DNA of 64,000 nt from the NCBI GenBank assembly GCA_050729795.1, contig JBOHME010000003.1, positions 19,846 to 83,845 on the forward strand. Reading direction: 5' to 3'. Below the pieces are notes generated by a model. The model made no database searches and was not told where the DNA came from. It was given only the letters and a program-made list of their open reading frames with translations. This document shows positions 3,840 to 16,342 of the stretch, one piece after another. The position numbers and the translations under genes are program-made. Every line of letters begins with the position of its first letter. The first letter of the stretch is position 1. Origin of the DNA: Stellaceae bacterium (lineage in GTDB: Bacteria; Pseudomonadota; Alphaproteobacteria; ATCC43930; CGMCC-115725).

Positions 3840-3928
3840 CGGAAAATGGCGCTCGCAGCATCGGCTGATCCCGTCAATCTGGGCAGCCGCAACTCTTTGT
3901 GGAAGGGCGGAACCGGGGTGGCTTCGGA

Positions 3929-4549
3929 TCAGCGCCGCCGCTGCCGCGCGCGCAGCAATGCCCACACCATGCTGCCGATCCCGAACAGCGTGAACCCGGC
4001 CAATACCAATATGGCGAAATTGGTGGCGCCGATCAGCCGCTGACCGATCCGGCCGACCGCATCGCCGGCAAAGAGCAGCATCGGCGCCCATACCAGGGCC
4101 GAGGTGACGTTGGCGACCCAGAAGCCCCGGGGCGACATCTGCATGATGCCGGCCGCGAGCGGGATCACCGCACGCACCGGGCCAAAGAAACGGCCGATAA
4201 ACACGCTGATCCCGCCGTACCGGGCAAAAAACCGGATGCCGCCCGGCAATAGGTCGGGATGCCGGGTGAACGGCCACACGCGGGCAAGGCCGCCGCCGAA
4301 CCGGCGCCCAATCCAATACGAGATCGAATCGCCGAGCACCGCACCGAGGATCGCCCCCACCAGCACCGGCAGGTATGGCAAGGTCCCGCTCGCCATCAGC
4401 GCACCGGCGGCGATCAACAGCGAGGTTCCCGGAAACAACAGGCTGACAAAGGCGAAGGATTCGCCAAAGGCGGTGACGAACATGATCGCGAACGCCCACC
4501 CGGCATGCGCGGCGATAAAGGCGAGCGTCGGCTGGACCAGATGCTCCAT
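3929..4549 (-). CDS. DedA-family inner membrane protein
   Basis: 206 aa and multi-pass. Typical DedA segments FGESFAFVSLLFPG and LGDSISYWIGRRFG. Confidence 0.85.
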   Translation of the reverse strand: MEHLVQPTLAFIAAHAGWAFAIMFVTAFGESFAFVSLLFPGTSLLIAAGALMASGTLPYLPVLVGAILGAVLGDSISYWIGRRFGGGLARVWPFTRHPDLLPGGIRFFARYGGISVFIGRFFGPVRAVIPLAAGIMQMSPRGFWVANVTSALVWAPMLLFAGDAVGRIGQRLIGATNFAILVLAGFTLFGIGSMVWALLRARQRRR

Positions 4550-4750
4550 CGTTTAGACATGAGACATTATGCGCGCGCGGGATGCCTGGATAGCATCACG
4601 CCCTTAAGCTAGCCTGACCGAGCCGAGGCCACCCCGATCCGGTCGTCGCGGCGAGCCGGACGGGACCGGCCCAGCGTCGGCCGGTTGGCGCAGCACTCTG
4701 CGAACAGCCGCAGCGATGGGTCGCCGACATCTCGGAACCTGAGGGAAAAC

Positions 4751-5386
4751 ATGGCTCACCCGATCGTTTATGGCCCTCCCGGCAGCACCTATGTGTGGAG
4801 CGCACGGCTCGCGCTGGCCGAGAAGGGTGTCACCCACGAACTGGTCGAGCTGTCGTTTGGTGCCCACAAGGAAGAGCCGCATCTATCGCGCCAGCCTTTC
4901 GCCAGGGTCCCCGCCTTCGAGCATGACGGGTTCGCGCTCTACGAAACCCAGGCGATCATGCGCTATGTCGACGAGCGCTTTCCGGGCGCCCCGCTGCAGC
5001 CCGAGGATGTGCACCAATGGTCGCGGATGAACCAGATCATCGGCATCGTCGATGCCTATGCGTGGCCCAGCATCGCCGCCACGATCCTCTATAACCGCAT
5101 GCTGGTGCCGCGCCTTGGCGCCACCCCGGACGAAGCAGCGATCGCCGCGGCTCTGCCGCGCGCGCAACTGTGCCTGGCCGAGATCAACCGGCTGATGGAG
5201 GATCACGCGTTTCTCGCCGCCGATTTTGTCAGCCTCGCCGATCTGATGGTGATCCCGCTCCTACATTATTTTGCCAATGTGCCGGACGGTCGCGAACCCT
5301 TGTCGCGCCACCCGAAGCTGCGCGATTGGATCGGCCGGATGGAGACCCGGCAGAGCTTTCAGGTGACCAAGCCGCCGCTGCCCTAG
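4751..5386 (+). CDS. glutathione S-transferase family protein
   Basis: ATG at 4751 preceded by GAGGGA. The N-terminal thioredoxin-like and C-terminal helical GST pattern runs MAHPIVYGPPGSTYVWSARLALAEKGV...VPAFEHDGFALYETQAIMRY. Confidence 0.85.
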   Translation: MAHPIVYGPPGSTYVWSARLALAEKGVTHELVELSFGAHKEEPHLSRQPFARVPAFEHDGFALYETQAIMRYVDERFPGAPLQPEDVHQWSRMNQIIGIVDAYAWPSIAATILYNRMLVPRLGATPDEAAIAAALPRAQLCLAEINRLMEDHAFLAADFVSLADLMVIPLLHYFANVPDGREPLSRHPKLRDWIGRMETRQSFQVTKPPLP

Positions 5387-5434
5387 CTAGGGTGCGGCGA
5401 AAGGCTGGCCTTCTCCGGTCCGCCGTGGCACCGG

Positions 5435-5653
5435 TTATTTCCGGTAGGGGTTGACGAGACCGGCGACAATCGCCGCTAGCACGTCGCGCAGCTGGCGTTC
5501 GTCCGCACCCATCAGCACTGCGTCTTCGAGCGCCTCCTGCGCCAGCTCGCGCAATTCTGCGAGGTTTTCGTTCAGCATCTTGATCTTTTCGACACAGGAC
5601 ACCGGTTCGCCCTCGGGTGTCCGCCATACCGGAAACTCGCTCGGTTTGCTCAT
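5435..5653 (-). CDS. hypothetical small acidic protein (72 aa)
   Basis: Clean ORF with coding-like composition, lying immediately downstream of mlaD on the same strand. No family recognised. Confidence 0.55.
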   Translation of the reverse strand: MSKPSEFPVWRTPEGEPVSCVEKIKMLNENLAELRELAQEALEDAVLMGADERQLRDVLAAIVAGLVNPYRK

Positions 5654-5670
5654 CGCCCGTGATCTCCCGG

Positions 5671-6180
5671 CTATTTGAGCTCGTCGCCGGCCCCTGCCGC
5701 CGGCGCCGCTGCACCGCCGGCGCCCGGCTTCTTCTGCCCGTTCGGCTGCGAAAAGATCATCTGCCCGATCAGGTTTTCGAGGCTGACCGCAGACTGCGTG
5801 TATTTGATCCGGCCCCCTGGCGCGATGTTCTTATCCGAGCCGCCAGGAACCAACGAAACAATCTTATCAGCGAGCAGGCTTGGCGAGCTGATCTCGGCAA
5901 CGGTGTCGTCGGGCAATCTATACTCGGGATTGATACTCATATTGAGCGTAGCGACGAAGGTCTTAGGGTCGAGGGTTTCGGCGGTCACCGAGCCGACCTT
6001 GACCCCGCCGATGCGCACATCGCTGCCGTCGCGAATACCGTCGACGTCCTGGAACTGTGCCGTCACCCGGTAGCCGCCGACCGCCCGCACCTCGCTTGTC
6101 GAATAGGCGAAGAACAGAAACAGCGCGGCGATCACGAGGACGACCGCGCCCATGACCGTCTCGATCACATTGCCGCGCAT
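5671..6180 (-). CDS. mlaD: MlaD-family (MCE domain) outer-membrane lipid asymmetry protein
   Basis: Start at MRGNVIETVMGAVVLVIAALF (ATG 6178-6180). The MCE core is GIRDGSDVRIGGVKVGSVT. Confidence 0.85.
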   Translation of the reverse strand: MRGNVIETVMGAVVLVIAALFLFFAYSTSEVRAVGGYRVTAQFQDVDGIRDGSDVRIGGVKVGSVTAETLDPKTFVATLNMSINPEYRLPDDTVAEISSPSLLADKIVSLVPGGSDKNIAPGGRIKYTQSAVSLENLIGQMIFSQPNGQKKPGAGGAAAPAAGAGDELK

Positions 6181-6232
6181 CGCCCCGATCCCTCGCGGCC
6201 GCCGCTCGATTGCCGCCGACATCGCTCCCGGC

Positions 6233-6610
6233 CTATTCGGGGGTCCACGGCTCGTAATCGCCGGTCGTTTGCGCCCGCCGCCCGCCGCGCAGGATCGAGC
6301 CCGGCGGACGGTAGGCAAAGGGTGTGCCGGTCATGTTCGGCTGATGCTCCTTTTCCCAGGGATAGCGGGTGCGCATTCCTGGATGCGGCACCTCGTCCAC
6401 CGTGTGGTGCAGCCATGCATGCCATTCAGACGGCACCTTCGAGCCCTCCGGCTCGCCCATATAGATGACCCAGCGCTTCTCGCGGCTGGCGCGTCCGCCA
6501 CCGCGCGGCAGATCCCGCCGCCCCTTCTCGCGGTAATAGCGGTTGCCGAGGCTGTCGGTGCCGACATAGTCGCCGCGCAGCAAGGTCAACAGGCGCGTGC
6601 CGAGGCTCAT
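6233..6610 (-). CDS. NADH:ubiquinone oxidoreductase subunit NDUFA12-family protein
   Basis: The segment LGNRYYREK...WHAWLHHTVDEVP...YEPWTP is characteristic of the NDUFA12/B17.2 family. Confidence 0.85.
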   Translation of the reverse strand: MSLGTRLLTLLRGDYVGTDSLGNRYYREKGRRDLPRGGGRASREKRWVIYMGEPEGSKVPSEWHAWLHHTVDEVPHPGMRTRYPWEKEHQPNMTGTPFAYRPPGSILRGGRRAQTTGDYEPWTPE

Positions 6611-6758: not shown

Positions 6759-6771
6759 ATTGGGGGCTCTC

Positions 6772-9700
6772 ATGCAAATCGAGCGACGCTTCACTCAGCC
6801 GGGCGAGGACCCGTATGCCGCGGTGCCGTTCCGCAACGCGGCCAGCGAGATTCGCAACCCCGATGGCTCGGTCGTGTTCCAGGCCGAGGATATCGCGGTG
6901 CCGGCCGAATGGAGCCAGGTCGCCTGCGACATCCTTGCCCAGAAATATTTCCGCAAGGCCGGGGTGCCGGCCTCTGTGGCAGCGGTGCCCGAAGACGGCG
7001 TCCCGGCCTGGCTGTGGCGGCGCACCCCCGATCCGGATGCGGCCGCCGCACTGCCGGAAAGCGAGCGGCTCGGTGCCGAGAGCGATGCTCGTCAGGTGTT
7101 CGACCGGATGGCCGGGACCTGGACCTACTGGGGCTGGAAGGGCGGCTATTTTAATACCGAGGAGGACGCGCAGGCGTTCTGCGACGAGATCCGGCTGATG
7201 CTGGCGCGGCAGATCGCGGCGCCAAACTCGCCGCAATGGTTCAACACCGGGTTGCACTGGGCCTATGGCATCGACGGGCCGGCGCAGGGACACCATTACG
7301 TCGATTATAAGAGCGGCGCGCTGATGACCTCGGCGAGCGCCTACGAGCACCCGCAGCCGCACGCCTGCTTTATCCAGTCGGTCGCCGACGATCTCGTCAA
7401 CGAGGGCGGGATCATGGACCTCTGGGTGCGCGAGGCGCGCATCTTCAAATACGGCTCGGGCTCGGGCTCGAATTTCTCGAAAGTGCGCGGCGATGGCGAG
7501 CGGCTTTCCGGGGGTGGCCGGTCCTCGGGGCTGATGAGCTTTCTGCGCATCGGCGACCGGGCGGCGGGTGCCATCAAATCCGGCGGCACGACACGGCGCG
7601 CGGCCAAGATGGTCATCGTCGATGTCGATCATCCGGATGTCGAGGCGTTTATCGACTGGAAGGTGGTCGAGGAGCAGAAGGTCGCTTCCCTCGTCGCCGG
7701 CTCGAAACTGATCCGGCGTCATCTCGGCCGGGTCATGGCCGCCTGCCGGGAAGCCGCACGGCAGGGTCTCGAAGCGGCTTGCGACCCGGCGCGCAACCTG
7801 GCATTGCAACGCGAGATTCGCGCCGCCCGGCGTGCGCTGGTCCCGGAAAACTGCATCGCGCGGGTGATCCAGTTCGCTCGCCAGGGTTTCACTGCGATCG
7901 ACTTCCGCACCTATGACACCGACTGGGATTCCGAAGCCTATCTGACCGTCGCCGGGCAGAATGCGAACAATTCGGTGCGGGTCTCGAACGATTTTCTCGA
8001 GCGCGTCGCGGCCGGCGGGAGCTGGGAGCTGATCCGCCGCACCGACGGCAAGGTGGCGAAGACCTTGCCGGCTAAGGCGCTCTGGGACCGCATCGGGCAG
8101 GCCGCCTGGGCCTCGGCCGATCCCGGACTGCAGTTCGACACGACGATCAACGACTGGCACACCTGTCCCGCGAGCGGCCGGATCAACGCGTCGAACCCGT
8201 GCTCCGAATACAATTTTCTCGACGATACCGCCTGCAACCTCGCCTCGCTGAACCTGATGGCCTTCCGCCGGGACGCCGGCAAGTTTGACAGCGAAGCCTT
8301 TGCACATGCGGTGCGGCTGTGGACGATCGTCCTCGAAATCTCGGTTATGATGGCGCAGTTCCCGTCTGCCGAGATCGCGCGCCGTTCCTATGCCTATCGC
8401 ACCTTGGGGCTCGGCTACGCCAATCTCGGCGGGCTCCTGATGGCGATGGGCATCGCCTATGACAGCGCCGCGGGCCGGGCCTTTGCCGCGGCGGTCACCG
8501 CGTTGCTGACCGGGGCGAGCTATGCCGCCTCGGCCGAGATGGCCGGCGATCCCGGATTGGTCCCGCAGGGGCCCTTCCCGGGCTATGCGCCCAATCGCGA
8601 CGCGATGCTGCGCGTTATTCGCAACCACCGCCGCGCCGCGCATGGCCATAGTGCCGGATATGAAGAGCTGGCGATTGCGCCGGTGCCGCTCGACGCCGCG
8701 AACTGCCCCGACCCGCTTCTGGTTGCCGCCGCCCGCAGCACCTGGGACAGCGCGCTCAAACTCGGCGAACAGCACGGCTTCCGCAATGCCCAGGCGACGG
8801 TCATCGCGCCCACCGGGACGATCGGGCTCGTCATGGATTGCGATACGACCGGCATCGAGCCCGATTTCGCGCTCGTCAAATTCAAAAAGCTCGCCGGCGG
8901 CGGCTATTTCAAGATCATCAACCGCGCAGTGCCGCAGGCGCTCGCCGCCCTCGGCTATGATACCGCCGAGAGCGCCGCAATCGAGCGCTATGCGCTGGGC
9001 CATGGCAGTCTCGCCGGCGCGCCCGCGATCGATCACCACAGCCTGCGCGCCAAGGGATTTGACGACCGAGCGCTCGCCGCCGCCGAAGCCGCGCTCGCCA
9101 CCGCCTTCGACATCAAGTTCGCCTTTAACAAATGGACCCTCGGTGAGGAGTTCTGCACCCAACGCCTCGGTCTTGCGCCGGCGGCGCTCGACGCACCGGG
9201 CTTCGATTTGTTGGCCGCGATCGGTTTCAGCCGGGCCGAGATCGACGCCGCCAATACCTGGTGCTGCGGGGCGATGACGCTCGAAGGGGCGCCGCATCTG
9301 CAGCCCGAGCACCTGCCGGTGTTCGACTGCGCCTCCCCGTGCGGCCGCATTGGCACGCGCGCGCTCTCGGCCGAGAGCCACATCCGCATGATGGCGGCGG
9401 CCCAGCCCTTTATCTCGGGCGCTATCTCGAAGACGATCAACATGCCGAACGCGGCGACGATCGAGGACTGCAAGGAGGCCTATTGGCTCTCCTGGCGGCT
9501 GGGGCTCAAGGCGACCGCACTCTATCGCGACGGCTCGAAACTGTCGCAGCCCTTGGCGGCGAGCCTCTTTGGCGATGACGAGGAGGCAGAGGATCGCGCC
9601 GCCGAACTCTATGAGCGCTCGCCGGCCGAGCGCGCCCCGATCGTCGCCGAGCGCATTGTCGAACGCGTGGTCGAGCGTGTCGTCGAAAAAATCGTGCAGC

Positions 9701-10479
9701 GCGGCGAGCGCCGCCGCCTGCCCAACCGGCGCAAGGGCTACACGCAAAAGGCCACGGTCGGCGGCCACAAGGTCTATCTGAGAACCGGCGAGCACGAGGA
9801 TGGCCGGCTCGCCGAAGTCTTTATCGATATGCACAAGGAAGGCTCAGCGTTCCGCTCGCTGATGCACAATTTCGCGATCGCGATCTCGATGGGGCTGCAA
9901 TACGGCGTGCCGCTCGAAGAGTTTGTCGAGAGCTTTACGTTCAGCCGGTTCGAGCCGTCCGGCATTGTCGAGGGCAACGATGCGATCAAGATGGCGACCA
10001 GCATCCTCGACTACATCTTTCGCGAATTGGCGATCTCCTATCTCGGCCGCGGTGACCTCGCCCATGCCGAGCCCGGCGATTTGTTGCCCGACACGGTCGG
10101 GCGCGGCGAATCCCAGTCGAGCCTGCGCGGCGGCGGCGACGGCCGCCCGCAGCCCACCCCTGCCCCTGCGCTAGATCCCGACATCGAGCCGCGGGTTGCC
10201 GCAATGATGCAGCGCGACGTGTCGAACGGCTTTGTCCGCAACAAGCTGACCGTCCTGCATGGTGGCGCCAGCCGCAACGCCTCGGTCGCCCTCGCCGATT
10301 CCGACTCCGCAGAGGCGACCGAGAACGCCCCGCTGGCGCTGCGCCTGGAACGCGTCCGCGCCGCCCGCATCCGCGGCTACGAAGGCGACAGCTGCACCGA
10401 ATGCGGCAACTTCACCCTCATTCGCAACGGCACCTGCCTCAAATGCGACACCTGCGGCGCGACCTCAGGATGTTCTTAA
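6772..10479 (+). CDS. nrdJ: vitamin B12-dependent (class II) ribonucleotide reductase
   Basis: 1235 aa starting at [15 protein letters not shown]. Active-site region [21 protein letters not shown] and C-terminal Cys-rich tail [22 protein letters not shown]. Confidence 0.95.
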
Positions 10480-11219
10480 ATAGGGCGGCCGGACGGTGCG
10501 GCTCTGCGGTCATCTCCGTGGAGACCAAGGACGTCGAAGACCTCCCTAAGCTGGGCTTGGTTAGTTGAACGGTTCCGCCTCAACGGTATCCCACCTTCCT
10601 GGATCAATAGCTGATTCCCCTCTCTGGCTCCGTTCATATCATCATACAGAGCCACAAAAAGCGGCTTATTCATGCTAAGCGTGGAGTATCCAGCGTTTAG
10701 AGTACCACCTCTTTCCCTCGCTTCCAGAACGATGACCACCTCACTAAGCGCAACGATAACCTTATTTCGTTCCATTGCACGATCCGCCCTCCATATAGCC
10801 CTTCTTGGGAATTGGCTTAGCACGAGCACACGTTCCCAATCCCACGCTTCCACAATATTTTTCTTTATACGAAAATAGTCGATACCTTCAGGAAGAACCA
10901 CGATTGTCTTTCCGCCACCCTTCAACGCAGCATTGTGAGATGCCATGTCAACGCCTGGGGCATACCCGGAAACAACCGTCACACCAGCAGCGCTCAGTTG
11001 TGAGGCGCAGTCGGCAGCTATCTGAAGTCCGTACTCGCTTGCATTTCGAGAGCCGCAGAATCCAACAGCTTTTGCATTAACAAGATCGATATTACCTAGA
11101 TACCAAATTTCAGGGGAGACCAGTGCACCGAATACCGGGCGCAGGGACGGTGGATAAACCACGTCGTCGGAGGTTATGCGCCTCGGATCAGTCTTCATTG
11201 ATTGTCCGTGTTGCGCCAT
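10476..11219 (-). CDS. DprA/Smf-like Rossmann (SLOG superfamily) protein, short stand-alone form
   Basis: Matches the DprA core pattern over [62 protein letters not shown]...[28 protein letters not shown]. The alternative ATG at 11196-11198 gives an ATGA overlap with the upstream PRTase stop. There is no SAM or winged-helix extension. Confidence 0.8.
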
Positions 11220-12206
11220 GTTTTGACGCAGAACAGCCCATTGACCTCAACCGCCCCTGCTCGATAGAGCTCAGATGCTAAGAAATTTGCGGTAATTCCG
11301 GATTGGTATTTGTCATCGATCAAGATGATCTTCTTGCCATCAACTCTGTTATCCACCGACAACCGCGCCGCTTCCAGCGCCGCCCACTTCTCGTCCACTG
11401 GAAGCGCCTTGATACTCTCCTTTTCAGCATTGAATTTCACCCAGGCCGCGAGATGTAACTTTCGGGATCTCTTGGCAACCAGCGCGGACAATTCTGTGGG
11501 CAGATCCCAACCCTTACTTGGCGACGGCGGAAACGCAGCAAACTGCATCACAGTCAGAATAAAAAGTAACGGTCGAAATTGCCCGAACACATGCGATCGC
11601 TAACCTATCGATCGCGGTCGCATCTCGTTTGGTCTTGGCGTTATGCTCGGCCAACCCTAATTCCGTATACGTGCGGTCGCTCGCAAAATTGTAATCGAGG
11701 GCAATGGAGAGGTCCAGCTTGTCCCGCAAAAAAATGAATTCTTTATGCCTATCTTGCCATTCGATGGCACGTCGAATCTCTGCTTCGTCCGTTAAGTAAC
11801 CGTATGGCCCATACGGCCCAAGGGACAGCATAATACCGGTGTCATGCCTGAATAGTAGGCCGAGGCTCTGCAACTGCAGGCTTACCATATATCGTCCATC
11901 TGGTCTTGGACACACAACGGGATGATCTAAAAATCTCCGGAGGGTCGGTTTGAGGATGCTAACTTGTTCAACGTCTTCCTTGGTAATTTTCTTACGTAGC
12001 GGGCGCACGAGATTCTCCGATGCAATGAAGGATACCAGTGGACGTCGGGTCAACCCAAGATCTGGTTGTCCGCTGACATATCCCCGATATTCTCCTAACT
12101 CCCTGTGAACGAAATTTAAAAGTGTGGATAACTCCCGCGGAAATCCTCCAGCGAGCGCGGTGGCTAATATTATATGAAGAACATACCGGGAATCAAGAAG
12201 TGCCTA
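10480..12206. other. AT-richer genomic islet (probable horizontally acquired insert) without integrase or transposase
   Basis: Hand counts of 60-nt lines give about 43-45% G+C (lines 10621 and 11701) against about 62% just outside (line 10381). Composition changes abruptly near 10.50 kb and 12.20 kb. Confidence 0.75.
11195..12053 (-). pseudogene. ComF-like phosphoribosyltransferase with unknown N-terminal domain, split by a 1-nt frameshift
   Basis: ORF 11514..12053 (TTG start) ends ...FYSDCDAVCCV-SAVAK*. ORF 11195..11590 in another frame continues PPSPSKGWDLP...GKKIILIDDKYQSGITANFLASELYRAGAVEV, which contains the PRPP-binding loop. Dropping one T of the TTT run (plus strand aaa, 11531-11533) restores D-A-V-C-C-V-P-P-S, the ComF-type motif. 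Confidence 0.7.
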
Positions 12207-12361
12207 TGGCGTGCGCCGGGGGGCTACGCCCACCATGGTAGTCGTCTGCCATGCGATGGGCTTGGGATTTCGGCATGGTCGGGCGACCGGCCGAACACTT
12301 TCATCGTTCGCCGAAGCTGCGTCCCCTATCCGTCGGTTGCCGGTACGGCTGGCTACGTAAA

Positions 12362-12384: not shown

Positions 12385-12579
12385 TTAATGCGCGTCCAAT
12401 TGGGTTTCGCGGACCATTCGCTCGTGTCCGTCGACGGTGTTCTTGACGCGGTACTGTGGCGTGCCGGCCTCGAGCGGAAGCAGGCGGACGATCGTGTAGC
12501 GGCCTCGGCTGGCCCGATCGACGCCCGGATCCGGCATGAATTGGACAGCCTGGCCGACGCGGAATTTGTGCTCTGACAT
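12385..12579 (-). CDS. hypothetical small protein (64 aa)
   Basis: Starts at MSEHKFRVGQAVQFMPDPG (ATG 12577-12579) inside ORF 12385..12630. Coding-like composition, no family recognised. Confidence 0.5.
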   Translation of the reverse strand: MSEHKFRVGQAVQFMPDPGVDRASRGRYTIVRLLPLEAGTPQYRVKNTVDGHERMVRETQLDAH

Positions 12580-12639
12580 CGCGACCTTCCAAAAGCGCGG
12601 CACGGGCGCCGCCACCGGCGCCGCCCGCACCCGGTTACG

Positions 12640-12846
12640 TTACGCGGCTTGGAGATCGACCGCCGAGGTCTTGCCCTGCTGGCCCCGTTCCAGCTGATAG
12701 CTGATCCGCTGGCCTTCGGTGAGATGGCCCAGACCCGAACGCTCGACGGCTGAGATATGGACAAACACGTCCTTTGAGCCGTCTTCGGGCTGGATGAATC
12801 CATAGCCCTTTTGTGTATTAAACCATTTCACGGTGCCGATCGTCAT
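12640..12846 (-). CDS. cspA: cold-shock protein (CspA family)
   Basis: RNP1 motif KGYGFI and RNP2 motif VFVHIS. 68 aa, with a long AT-richer leader upstream (12847 to about 13010). Confidence 0.95.
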   Translation of the reverse strand: MTIGTVKWFNTQKGYGFIQPEDGSKDVFVHISAVERSGLGHLTEGQRISYQLERGQQGKTSAVDLQAA

Positions 12847-13302
12847 CGAGCTTCCTTAAGAAAAATCCTGAATCGGCGCCCTCGCCGAGCCAGATCACAT
12901 TTCAATTTCGGGAGGCGCTGTTCGGCTTGCTCGAGGGCACACCGCATAGAACCGTGCCCAGATCGAAACACGACTTCCCTCATATGTGAGTTTGAGTGTC
13001 AATGGTCAAATGATTCTTTTCTGTTGCGCAGCCGGATCGCCCGCGCTGTCGGGCTGTGAGCGCTGCGCGACACCGGTCATCGCTGGCCAGGCTGGCTCTG
13101 CTGGTCGTGGTATTGCCCAACAGCAGCCGCCCCTCCTGCGCGATCACTGCTGCCGGTGCTCCCATCCTGCTCGACGGGAGCGCCGCCCGAGAACGACGGT
13201 GGTCTTGGCACCCCACCCTCACGCAAACGGACGGCTCGGCGACCGATGCCGATGCCCGGCGGCCTTCGACCGCCCTCGGCCGGGCGCTCGGATCAGCTCC
13301 GC

Positions 13303-14967
13303 TCACGCCTCGCCGTAATGGACACGGCGGAACTGGCGGGTCGGGATCAGATCGTCGATATGCACGTCCCACAGCGTGGCGCCGGGTTGCTGCTGGTGCT
13401 CGCTGAAGAGCTGCGCAAAGCGGCCGAGCTCGGTTACCCGGGCACCGTTGAGGCCAAAGCCGCGGGCGGTGGCGGCGAGATCGCCGCGGCCGTGCACGGC
13501 ATGGCTCGGGTCGCCGCCATGGGCGCGGAACTTGTGCGATTCGGCGCCATAGCCGCCATCGTTCAGGATCGCGATCAGCAATTTAAGACCGTGGCGGCGC
13601 ACCGTCTCCAATTCCTGGATGTGCTGATAGAGGCTGCCGTCGCCGTCGATCAGCAGGATCTTGTCGCTGCCGCGCGCGACCGCAACGCCGATCGCCGCCG
13701 ACAGCCCCGAGCCGATCGCGCCAAAATCGAGCGGCGTGTGGTACTTGCCGGCCGGCCGGCCCTTCAGCTGGGTCATGCCAAAGCCGAAGCAGTGCCCGCC
13801 GGCGACGATGATGTCCCAATCCTTGGGGATTGTCGCGTCGAGCTCGCGCACCACCGGGCGCGGATCGAGCGTGCCCGGCGTCGGCTGGTATTCCTTCGCA
13901 TCGGGCACATCGGCCGCGATCCGGTCGGCGACGGTGTTGCTGCGCCAGCCCGGCCGGCGGATGCCGCGCTCGACGAGCTGGCGGGTGATCGCCTCGGCGG
14001 TGGCGCGGGCGTCGGCGCGGATGTGCAGGTCGGCGGTCTTCAGCCCCTGCCATAGCCCCTTCGGGTTTACGTCGATCTGCACGACCTTGGCGTTCGGATA
14101 GAGATAGCCGCCCTCGGTCGTGTAATGGCCGAGCCCGGCGCCGGCAGCGATCACGAGGTCGCTCTCGGCAAAAAACTCGCGGGCGAGATCGCTCGAAAAG
14201 GTGCCGGCGATGTCGAGCGCAAACGGGTTGCCGTCGAACAGCCCCTTGCCGAGCAGCGTCGTCGCCAGCAACGCGCCGCTGTGCTCGGCCAAGGCTTCGA
14301 GCGCCGCCTTGGCGCCCGACCAGACGGCACCCCGGCCGCCGATCACGACCGGCCGCTCGGCCTCGGCGATCATCCCGGCGACCTCCTCGACCAGCGCCGG
14401 GTCGGGCATTGCCACCTGCCGGCGCGGCACCAGCCCGGTCGAGGGCGCGTAATCGGGCAGAAACGGAAACGCCTCCTGCTGCAGGTCGAGCGGCACACTC
14501 AATACCACCGGGCGGCGCTCGGCGCGGGCGACGTAAAACGCTTCGCGGACATCGTCGAGCGCCCGGTCGATCGTGCGGATCGGCACGAAATGGGCCCCGC
14601 TGGCGAGCGCCAGCGGCGCCTGATCGATCTCCTGCATGTACCAGGAGGCACCCACCGGGGCATCGCCGGCAAACACGACGACGGGCGCATTGCCGCGCGC
14701 CGCCATGACGAGTGCCGTCATGATCTGGGTGTAGCCGGGGCCGCAGGTGACCGCGGCGACGCCGACATTGCCCGAGGCGCGGGCATAGGCGTCGGCCATC
14801 GCCACCGCGCAATGCTCGTGCCGGGCATGGATCAGGCGCACGCCTTCGTTGTCGGCCATCGCCGCCGACCAGTACATGTTGGCATCGCCCATCAGCGTGA
14901 ACAGCGTGTTGACCCCCTCGGCGGCAAACGCCCGCGCTAAGACATCGCAAACCTTGTTGTCGCTCAT
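13303..14967 (-). CDS. thiamine pyrophosphate-dependent enzyme (acetolactate synthase-like family)
   Basis: Starts at MSDNKVCDVLARAFAAEGVNTLF (ATG 14965-14967). The TPP-binding motif is IDGDGSLYQH...ILNDGGYG. Confidence 0.85.
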   Translation of the reverse strand: MSDNKVCDVLARAFAAEGVNTLFTLMGDANMYWSAAMADNEGVRLIHARHEHCAVAMADAYARASGNVGVAAVTCGPGYTQIMTALVMAARGNAPVVVFAGDAPVGASWYMQEIDQAPLALASGAHFVPIRTIDRALDDVREAFYVARAERRPVVLSVPLDLQQEAFPFLPDYAPSTGLVPRRQVAMPDPALVEEVAGMIAEAERPVVIGGRGAVWSGAKAALEALAEHSGALLATTLLGKGLFDGNPFALDIAGTFSSDLAREFFAESDLVIAAGAGLGHYTTEGGYLYPNAKVVQIDVNPKGLWQGLKTADLHIRADARATAEAITRQLVERGIRRPGWRSNTVADRIAADVPDAKEYQPTPGTLDPRPVVRELDATIPKDWDIIVAGGHCFGFGMTQLKGRPAGKYHTPLDFGAIGSGLSAAIGVAVARGSDKILLIDGDGSLYQHIQELETVRRHGLKLLIAILNDGGYGAESHKFRAHGGDPSHAVHGRGDLAATARGFGLNGARVTELGRFAQLFSEHQQQPGATLWDVHIDDLIPTRQFRRVHYGEA

Positions 14968-15635
14968 TGGGTATTTCCTTTGGGGTTTTTTCCTTTGGCG
15001 AAAAACATCTGTCGCAACCAGCCGAGCAACGCCCGCCACAACAGCGCACCACCGTGCAATTCCGCGGCAGCCGGAACCGGCCGAACATCCGCGCCGGTGC
15101 CCTGAGCCTGCCGCAACGAGGACGCCGGATCGGCGGTGCCGGTAATGTCGGGGGCGGGCTCGGAAAGGGCGACCAGCGCCGCCCGCTCGGCGGCGAGGCG
15201 GGCGAGATTGCCGGCAAACTCGGCCAAGAGCGCCCGGGCGAGATGGACCCCGCCGGCATTGGCGAAAGTTTCAAGCGGGCCCGTGACCGTGAAATTGCCG
15301 TTGCAAGCAAGCGTCGTCGCCGCGGTCCCGCTCGTTTCGTTCGCCGTTACCACCCCCGACGCCACGGCCCGCGAGGCGCCGCGCCCATCGATGCCGCGAC
15401 CTTCGATTTTGCAGCACCGGGCGTCATCGTCATAAGCGAGCTTTGCTTCGCCGCGAAAGATCGCGACGGTCGGCCCGAACTTGACCCTGACCGTGCCCTG
15501 ATAGGCGCCGTCCTCGCCGGCAGCGGTGAGCGTCGCGCCCGGAATGCACGACGCGACCAGCGCCGGGTCGCGCAGCAATGGCCACACGGTCGCGGGCGGC
15601 GCTGCGATCGTGACCACTTCCTTCAGCGAGATCAT
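14964..15635 (-). CDS. SRPBCC-fold CoxG-like protein
   Basis: CoxG-like N-terminus (VTIAAPPATVWPLLRDPALVASCIPG) and a C-terminal amphipathic/hydrophobic tail. The stop overlaps the TPP-enzyme start as ATGA. Confidence 0.7.
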   Translation of the reverse strand: MISLKEVVTIAAPPATVWPLLRDPALVASCIPGATLTAAGEDGAYQGTVRVKFGPTVAIFRGEAKLAYDDDARCCKIEGRGIDGRGASRAVASGVVTANETSGTAATTLACNGNFTVTGPLETFANAGGVHLARALLAEFAGNLARLAAERAALVALSEPAPDITGTADPASSLRQAQGTGADVRPVPAAAELHGGALLWRALLGWLRQMFFAKGKNPKGNTQ

Positions 15636-15757
15636 GCCGGCAGGCTAATCGAGATCGGCGGGGCTTGTCGATCGTCGCGCTCGGGGGGGATCTGGTGCTT
15701 GACCGAGATTGCGCCGTGTAACACACTCGCCCCCACACTCATGGAGCATTATCCCCA

Positions 15758-16342
15758 ATGATCTTCTATCCAGAAGAAAGGATCGCCATATTCATCGATG
15801 GCGCGAACCTATACTCGGCAGCTAGAGGCCTCGCCTTCGATATCGATTACAAGCGTCTCCTCGATCTGTTCAGCACCAAGGGGCGGCTGATCCGCGCATT
15901 CTATTATACCGCGCTGATAGAAGACCAGGAATATTCACCAATACGGCCGCTCGTCGATTGGCTCGACTATAACGGCTACGCGATGGTCACCAAGCCGACC
16001 CGGGAGTTCACCGACGCGATGGGCCGGCGGCGGATCAAGGGCAACATGGATATCGAGCTGGCGATCGACATGCTCGAAATGGCGCAATATATCGATCACG
16101 CGATCCTGTTTTCCGGCGACGGCGATTTCCGCCGCCTGGTCGAGGCGGTGCAGCGCCGCGGGGTGCGCGTGTCGGTGGTCTCGACCATCCGCTCCTCGCC
16201 GCCGATGGTGTCGGACGATCTGCGCCGCCAAGCCGACAATTTCATCGAGCTGCAGGAGCTCGCGCCAAACATCATGCGCAATCATCCGGCCCGCGACGAC
16301 ATACAGCGGGGACGGCCGGGCGAGCCCGTGGACGAGGCGTGA
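15758..16342 (+). CDS. NYN-domain (LabA/DUF88-like) protein
   Basis: The pattern IAIFIDGANLY...GNMDIELAIDML...ILFSGDGDFRRLVEAVQRRGVRVSVV is typical of NYN/LabA ribonuclease-fold proteins. Confidence 0.8.
   Translation: MIFYPEERIAIFIDGANLYSAARGLAFDIDYKRLLDLFSTKGRLIRAFYYTALIEDQEYSPIRPLVDWLDYNGYAMVTKPTREFTDAMGRRRIKGNMDIELAIDMLEMAQYIDHAILFSGDGDFRRLVEAVQRRGVRVSVVSTIRSSPPMVSDDLRRQADNFIELQELAPNIMRNHPARDDIQRGRPGEPVDEA

Follow-up and report, generated by a model that had tools for sequence, protein, structure and literature searches.

A 64,000-nucleotide stretch of the genome of a Stellaceae bacterium (GenBank assembly GCA_050729795.1, contig JBOHME010000003.1, positions 19,846 to 83,845 of the forward strand; hereafter the window) contains an islet of foreign DNA with two genes, one for a phosphoribosyltransferase (PRTase) and one for a DprA-like protein. 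The islet is probably an acquired pair of the toxin-antitoxin (TA) type to which the anti-phage systems ShosTA and PsyrTA (RqlHI) belong, and probably dead here. The putative toxin has an architecture of its own, in which a ComF/ShosT-like PRTase core carries an N-terminal domain of about 115 residues, with neither a pyrophosphatase nor a helicase. The module is read as a third architecture of the known PRTase/DprA-like toxin-antitoxin defence kind. The copy described here is decaying: with its toxin gene split and its antitoxin gene intact, it has most likely been inactivated recently. The principal features are as follows.

10481-12334, no strand: foreign low-G+C insert of 1.85 kb, delimited by the synteny break against the relatives L046, L047 and L048 (three other contigs bearing a Csp protein identical to that of the window)
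11195-12008, minus strand: PRTase pseudogene, putative toxin, about 270 amino acids (aa) when repaired; N-terminal domain at about 11664-12008, PRTase domain at 11195-11663
11531-11533, minus strand: frameshift site, where a run of T has one T too many, between the V (gtt) and P (ccg) codons of the conserved motif 'AVPPSP'; located by three-frame translation
11195-11198, minus strand: ATGA overlap of PRTase stop and DprA-like start, read directly from the sequence; translational coupling
10476-11198, minus strand: DprA-like gene, intact, 240 aa (247 aa from another ATG at 11219), putative antitoxin

The PRTase gene and its frameshift

The islet holds only these two genes, both on the minus strand. 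A preliminary description, made from the sequence alone, had counted them correctly. The PRTase gene is not a single open reading frame (ORF) but is split by the extra T into two ORFs in different frames, 11514-12053 (179 aa) and 11195-11590 (131 aa), and deletion of one T at 11531-11533 fuses them into one protein. Over its whole length the repaired protein can be aligned with 75 homologues (about 268 aa each), the best at 58% identity, and a family alignment (A1) is gapless across the repaired junction, where the consensus reads D.ICAVPPSP.K.WDLPTE. The probable start is the GTG at 12008, with GGAGA ahead of it, and was set by homologues beginning M-P-x-K-x-I-T.

The loop for binding phosphoribosyl pyrophosphate (PRPP), IILIDDKYQSGIT, is present as first described, and in alignment A1 its acidic pair, D246 and D247, is invariant at the sequence level within the DDKYQSG loop. 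The ComF-type motif 'DAVCCVPPS', which had been placed at the C-terminal end, exists after frame correction only and lies in the middle of the protein, at the start of the PRTase core. The repaired window protein is one row of alignment A1 and is included in all 28 invariant columns reported, so the lesion looks recent.

Among the PADLOC profiles, the repaired protein matched PsyrT at 4e-8 (profile positions 538-684 of 689) and ShosT (PDLC03962) weakly, at 4.2e-6 and over positions 81-211 of 237 only; intact relatives reached 1.6e-11 and 1.4e-9, respectively. Against NCBIfam comF (TIGR00201) it scored 22.9 bits (6.9e-5), compared with a cut-off of 233.55, and no helicase Pfam was matched by the repaired protein of about 270 aa.

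The extra T is also found in a contig of a metagenome-assembled genome (MAG) at NCBI (L001, GCA_973421735.1) and in a Logan contig (L002, SRR27067711), which match the window at 100% identity over 5858 and 2645 bases and in which the PRTase is likewise called as two pieces. A search of a protein collection of 5.8 billion clusters returned no intact allele of the window lineage, the nearest intact relative being 58% identical. The frameshift is very probably real, and since it breaks the toxin gene, the PRTase copy in the window is most likely inactive.

The DprA-like gene

The downstream gene encodes a bare Rossmann core with a short tail, flanked by neither a SAM nor a winged-helix domain, as the description of a stand-alone DprA Rossmann protein of 240-247 aa had held. 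It matches Pfam DNA_processg_A at 1.5e-42 and the SLOG family LDcluster4 at 4.7e-6, barely over the cut-off. In PADLOC it matched PsyrA (8e-43) and ShosA (PDLC03961; 4.9e-34); the PsyrA match spans positions 97-304 of 398, the terminal regions including the helix-turn-helix (HTH) part being missing from the window protein. The scores against NCBIfam dprA (TIGR00732; 128.4 bits, cut-off 191.15) and PRK10736 (93.5, cut-off 495) fall below threshold. In the Protein Data Bank (PDB) the protein matched Streptococcus pneumoniae DprA (3uqz) at 2e-19 and ShosA (9vzo) at 1.2e-10. Over its full length it is 72-76% identical to the partner genes at two homologous loci, L003 and L004. The ATGA overlap that couples the two genes stands as first reported, and a 4-nt overlap also occurs in the homologous pairs at L049, L051 and L055.

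Structure models and the N-terminal domain

An AlphaFold (AF2) model of the repaired PRTase, built with 24 homologues, reached a predicted local distance difference test score (pLDDT) of 92 and a predicted template modelling score (pTM) of 0.88. Its best Foldseek matches in the PDB were the ShosT entries 8zvb, 8zvd and 8zvc, at 1.6e-4 to 4.8e-4; the match to 8zvb had the E-value 1.6e-4 and a template modelling (TM) score of about 0.37. The Helicobacter pylori ComF structure 7p0h was also among the best matches, followed by ordinary type I PRTases. A sequence search of the PDB with the family profile returned only the PRPP loop of ordinary PRTases (E of at least 0.03) and no ShosT, so the connection with ShosT is drawn from PADLOC and Foldseek. 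Together with the PsyrA, ShosA and PsyrT profile matches, this bears out the earlier suggestion of kinship with defence pairs, weakly so on the toxin side.

The N-terminal part without a known match had been put at 170-220 residues; it does lack one, but comprises about 115-130. The domain itself, of about 115 residues, is alpha/beta, family-specific and marked by a conserved W...FLRDxLDxSIALDxN motif. When it was modelled alone, Foldseek gave no match in the PDB better than E = 0.46, and no ShosT entry was among the best 50 matches listed; the domain is therefore taken to be neither the pyrophosphatase-like domain of ShosT nor a helicase. Matches to MotA, aIF1 and acylphosphatase-like folds were too weak and were not taken as meaningful. 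The last strands lose confidence in the isolated model, and the full-length model is one rigid body. From these models we infer that the domain packs on the PRTase core, over which it may possibly form a hood that selects the acceptor. Among 1.84 billion representatives, its profile matched 214 clusters (50% identity, E up to 0.001). The full-length matches are mostly 260-300 aa long and carry the domain at the N-terminus; shorter ones look like fragments. Judged by these sequences, the domain appears to be specific to this toxin family.

Homologous loci

A scan of 185,579 species genomes yielded 43 family loci, which span Alpha-, Gamma- and Deltaproteobacteria, Acidobacteriota, Nitrospirota, Dehalococcoidia and others. 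The DprA-like gene lies directly downstream on the same strand in 42 of the 43, with a gap of 0-110 nt, and in 23 of 24 loci the pair is poorer in G+C than the flanking DNA (mean difference 10 points). Compared with their L003/L004 counterparts, the window PRTase shows 55-56% identity and the DprA-like protein 72-76%. The stronger conservation of the DprA-like protein would fit an antitoxin that acts on conserved host machinery. The two parts also occur fused: L041 encodes a single ORF (161-1654; 497 aa) with the order N-terminal domain, PRTase, DprA, and the protein P0113 (958 aa) consists of a DprA-like part, about 450 unassigned residues and then N-terminal domain and PRTase. These fusions point to joint action of the two proteins or to contact between them.

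Some copies lie in defence or mobile regions. L053 is a defence island, in which the pair stands between a type III restriction-modification system and GmrSD on one side and UvrD and SIR2 on the other; L059 is a mobile island, where the pair is found by a RES toxin, two integrases and AbiE. In the Afipia MAG L051 (region 987-2476), a DUF4238 gene (PADLOC DUF4238-Pers, 5.9e-8) directly follows nrdJ, the gene for class II ribonucleotide reductase, and is followed by a Gp49/HigB-like and HI1420-type pair. The PRTase/DprA-like pair lies about 1.8 kb past the other end of nrdJ, whose surroundings are variable there too. The proximity of the pair to nrdJ in L051 was rejected as meaningful, the pair being on the other side of the gene.

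PRTase decay recurs in the family. Broken PRTase genes stand beside intact DprA-like genes also in L009, L034 and L044, the order of loss that a toxic PRTase would predict. PRTase genes that are frameshifted or mere remnants occur as well in L011 and L043, where the DprA-like gene is truncated too, and in L045, which has no DprA-like gene. L011 is a Microflora Danica (MFD) MAG, and its frameshift could be an artefact if the assembly is a long-read one, as it presumably is.

Two further loci have unusual arrangements. In the Dehalococcoidia MAG L023, a 917-codon stop-to-stop frame (3847-6600) carries an FRG domain (PADLOC candidate PDC-S15), about 12 TPR repeats and a C-terminal PRTase core, and is followed by a DprA-like gene. 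In L057, an apparent orphan toxin homologue, P0050, is surrounded by ArdC, ParB, DUF2958, SLT, a TraF-like peptidase and DUF4238.

Composition, borders and genomic context of the islet

The islet is flanked by core genes, in the interval between nrdJ and the small gene next to csp in which it had first been noticed. A promoter-like element lies inside the insert.

6760-10479, plus strand: nrdJ, class II ribonucleotide reductase, left core flank (ORF list; Pfam Ribonuc_red_2_N, Ribonuc_red_lgC and TSCPD in the L046 orthologue)
12385-12846, minus strand: right core flank, csp (12640-12846; CSD Pfam) and the small gene downstream of csp (12385-12630), assigned by synteny
12169-12196, minus strand: promoter-like TTGATT, 16 nt, TATAAT upstream of the PRTase gene; 10 of 12 consensus positions matched, a consensus match only

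The G+C content is 51.0% in 10476-12206, compared with 66.6% in the left and 66.7% in the right flank. The contrast of about 15 points seen at first stands, but the absolute values then given, 43-45% against 62%, were too low. Over the whole window the mean is 65.9% (400-nt windows, standard deviation 3.9), and the islet is the sole extended stretch below 57%; its low G+C content is real and above chance level. At third codon positions, G+C (GC3) is 0.50-0.61 in both islet genes, compared with 0.83 in nrdJ and 0.86 in the thiamine-pyrophosphate (TPP)-enzyme gene. Minor dips to 0.55-0.56 were seen at 12701-13100, over the csp upstream region, and at 15601-16100, past the 5' end of the minus-strand ORF 14964-15635 and extending a few hundred bases.

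Synteny sets the borders. In blastn comparisons with L046-L048, identity is 86.7% up to 10480, at the nrdJ stop, and 90.5% from 12335 onward; homology returns 50 nt past the stop of the small csp-linked gene, and the junction is sharp. The extent first proposed, 10476-12206, thus describes a real low-G+C segment but is slightly short. The convergent stop codons of nrdJ and the DprA-like gene share a palindromic TTAA (10476-10479), and the synteny break falls exactly there. Where the window has the pair, L046-L048 have 1.36 kb of different DNA with a single gene, which encodes a 395-aa DUF4062 protein (L046:8603-9790, also in L047 and L048), has a G+C content of 0.52 and is without a PADLOC 2023 match. 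The comparison of the interval that had been proposed as a check therefore finds the insert absent and other cargo present. According to two 2026 preprints (10.64898/2026.05.01.722283; 10.64898/2026.06.25.731849), DUF4062 is a TIR-like NADase family with anti-phage activity, reported under the names Swarozyc, Evangelion and NIR.

Horizontal acquisition, proposed from composition, is supported: homology breaks at the nrdJ stop, and in relatives whose flanks are 86-90% identical the slot is occupied by another gene of low G+C content. The islet thus represents acquired cargo, in a slot of variable content bounded by nrdJ and the csp operon, which converge on it. From the DUF4062 gene of the relatives, the nrdJ-csp interval is read as an exchange slot for alternative defence-type cargo in the lineage. 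Only one alternative cargo was seen, L046-L048 being near-identical to each other over the compared flanks.

No integrase or transposase was found at the islet borders, in agreement with the preliminary description, nor was any tRNA or terminator, and the only flanking repeats there are short and at chance level; therefore no integration mechanism can be proposed. An Rfam scan of the whole window gave a single tRNA-Met, distant from the islet. A metagenome scan with the nrdJ 3' end gave at least 120 matching stretches. Among the 80 loci listed, nrdJ is just 67-84% identical over long alignments, homology to the window reaches at most about 24 nt beyond the nrdJ stop, and there is neither an empty site nor an intact allele; csp, a PRTase/DprA-like pair or DUF4062 downstream of nrdJ occurs in none. 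In an exact look-up for further versions of the slot, the 64-aa small protein was not on record, probably because another start is called.

Alternative explanations

Several observations weigh against reading the islet as a defence-type TA pair with a dead toxin. The DprA-like protein matches true DprA (128 bits in TIGR00732; 2e-19 to 3uqz) about as well as it matches ShosA, and on the toxin side the PADLOC similarity is weak and confined to the PRTase core. Several homologous pairs stand amid ordinary metabolic genes (L049, L055), and P0050 (L057:8001-8774) lies in a conjugative element without a DprA-like neighbour. Toxicity and phage defence are proposed for the family by analogy, and the frameshift could be an assembly error, as the three identical assemblies may share reads. 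If it is an error, the module would be intact and active, a working PRTase/DprA-like defence pair. All family-invariant residues are indeed kept on either side of the break, there is no other mark of decay, and the three assemblies with the extra T may come from one read set. The T-run, however, is only three long and an unlikely site for an error, the NCBI MAG and the Logan contig show 100% identity to the window, the search of the 5.8-billion-cluster collection brought up no intact allele above 58% identity, and split toxin genes by intact DprA-like genes recur at other loci; a sequencing or assembly error is distinctly unlikely. That the split is itself functional is very improbable. This would require a programmed +1 frameshift at GUU-U-CCG, or two fragments (about 164 and 117 aa) that reassemble as an attenuated toxin. 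The downstream fragment does have an ATG of its own (11548), gene callers predict both pieces and the gene has no other lesions, but every full-length homologue from the protein search is a single ORF, most genome loci are uninterrupted, no slippery or stalling context was seen at the site, and the break lies inside the PRTase core beside the motif of the pyrophosphate (PPi) loop. Programmed frameshifting was rejected, as nearly all homologues are single ORFs.

The biochemistry of a TA pair could also serve a selfish addiction cassette, which would stabilise mobile DNA without taking part in phage defence. Members in a conjugative element or beside integrases and other TA pairs would fit such a cassette, as would the copies in plain metabolic neighbourhoods, and toxin-first decay is typical of any TA pair. 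It is nevertheless unlikely, given that the related architectures ShosTA and PsyrTA are both phage-protective (10.1101/2022.05.11.491447; PMC11961720), that the same slot holds a defence-family gene in the relatives, and that L053 is a typical defence island. A housekeeping competence pair comFC/dprA, for DNA uptake and RecA loading, would explain the ComF-like PRTase core (TIGR00201 and 7p0h matches) and the DprA Rossmann domain of the partner. It is hardly credible here, as had been anticipated: the scores of both proteins fall well short of the NCBIfam cut-offs, the invariant and near-invariant family columns contain no cysteine, the DprA core is without SAM or winged-helix flanks, the composition is foreign, and relatives whose flanks are 86-90% identical lack the pair. 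Cut-offs, cysteines, domain flanks, composition and synteny all contradict it.

Proposed mechanism and significance

For an acquired TA pair of the ShosTA and PsyrTA kind, the following steps, modelled on ShosTA and RqlHI, may be envisaged. In intact copies the PRTase would bind PRPP via the invariant DDKYQSG loop and either phosphoribosylate some acceptor or drain PRPP, whereupon nucleotide metabolism and DNA replication would be disturbed and growth would stop. The DprA-like partner would offset the damage, by an activity linked to single-stranded DNA (ssDNA) and RecA or by direct contact, and phage infection would shift the balance to the toxin, leading to abortive infection. By the same analogy, neutralisation by the partner and phage defence would be properties of the intact family members. 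More tentatively, and rather doubtful as yet, the intact relatives may form a distinct third class of immune module, in which the N-terminal domain acts as a hood and selects an acceptor other than those of ShosT and PsyrT. Such a class would have a different toxic product or target, possibly with a different phage trigger, and the fusions would then suggest direct contact of toxin and antitoxin, unlike the type IV behaviour reported for ShosTA.

The pairing of a PRTase with a DprA-like protein is a proven yet poorly understood defence principle. With a compact third architecture one can ask, in a simpler and independent setting, which molecules these toxins phosphoribosylate and by what means DprA-like proteins counter them. 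The islet further marks the nrdJ-csp interval as a slot for the exchange of defence genes in the lineage and displays a pattern of toxin-first decay. As the window copy is probably dead, its value is that of a pointer to the family and not of a working system. Existing hidden Markov models (HMMs) of defence proteins detect this similarity, and the find should come as no surprise to specialists.

Comparison with known systems

ComFC bears an N-terminal zinc finger. ComFC and DprA share with the window pair the ComF-type PRTase core, the 'VPPSP..K' PPi-loop region, the DD of the PRPP loop and the DprA Rossmann/SLOG domain. They differ in that both window proteins stay below the NCBIfam cut-offs, the DprA-like protein has no SAM or winged-helix domain and the family alignments contain no invariant or near-invariant cysteine, as a zinc finger of the ComFC type needs. 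The pair described here also has a foreign composition, presence/absence polymorphism, a fixed gene order and overlapping ORFs.

In retrons (cited in 10.1101/2022.05.11.491447), a PRTase domain serves as an abortive-infection effector. The partner here is DprA-like instead, and neither a reverse transcriptase nor an msr/msd RNA is present at the islet.

PsyrTA/RqlHI provides the best PADLOC matches of both proteins, PsyrA and PsyrT's C-terminal PRTase domain. The genotoxicity of RqlH resides in its PRTase domain and requires D663, and the DprA-like RqlI counteracts it (PMC4670107). That system has a RecQ-like helicase, which is lacking here, where the toxin is under half the length of PsyrT. 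The window antitoxin is without about 96 N-terminal and about 90 C-terminal positions of the PsyrA profile, the C-terminal part corresponding to the HTH region in RqlI.

ShosTA (Escherichia coli ShosT/ShosA; PDB 8zvb-8zvd and 9vzo) protects against phage, as does PsyrTA (10.1101/2022.05.11.491447; PMC11961720). The preliminary description had held the mechanism of DprA-PRTase pairs to be unresolved, which is now only partly true, that of ShosTA having been partly worked out (PMC11961720, PMC12961424). The toxicity of ShosT requires PRPP binding through D331/D332 (PMC11961720), and ShosT disturbs purine metabolism and DNA replication (PMC11961720, PMC12961424). ShosA, which binds to ssDNA and to RecA, neutralises ShosT but does not bind to it, and ShosT is released by host shut-off or phage ssDNA (PMC11961720, PMC12961424). 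ShosTA is likewise a two-gene operon with the PRTase toxin upstream and the DprA-like antitoxin downstream, and it too occurs in mobile or defence contexts. Both PRTases have the acidic pair of the PRPP loop, among solved structures it is ShosT that the PRTase model matches best, and the ShosA profile is matched by the window antitoxin, though PsyrA scores higher. The difference lies in the domains attached to these shared cores: ShosT has 424 aa with an N-terminal pyrophosphatase-like Rossmann domain (residues 1-164; PMC11961720) and ShosA 331 aa with an extra N-terminal part, whereas the pair described here combines a PRTase of about 270 aa, with an unrelated N-terminal domain, and a 240-aa antitoxin.

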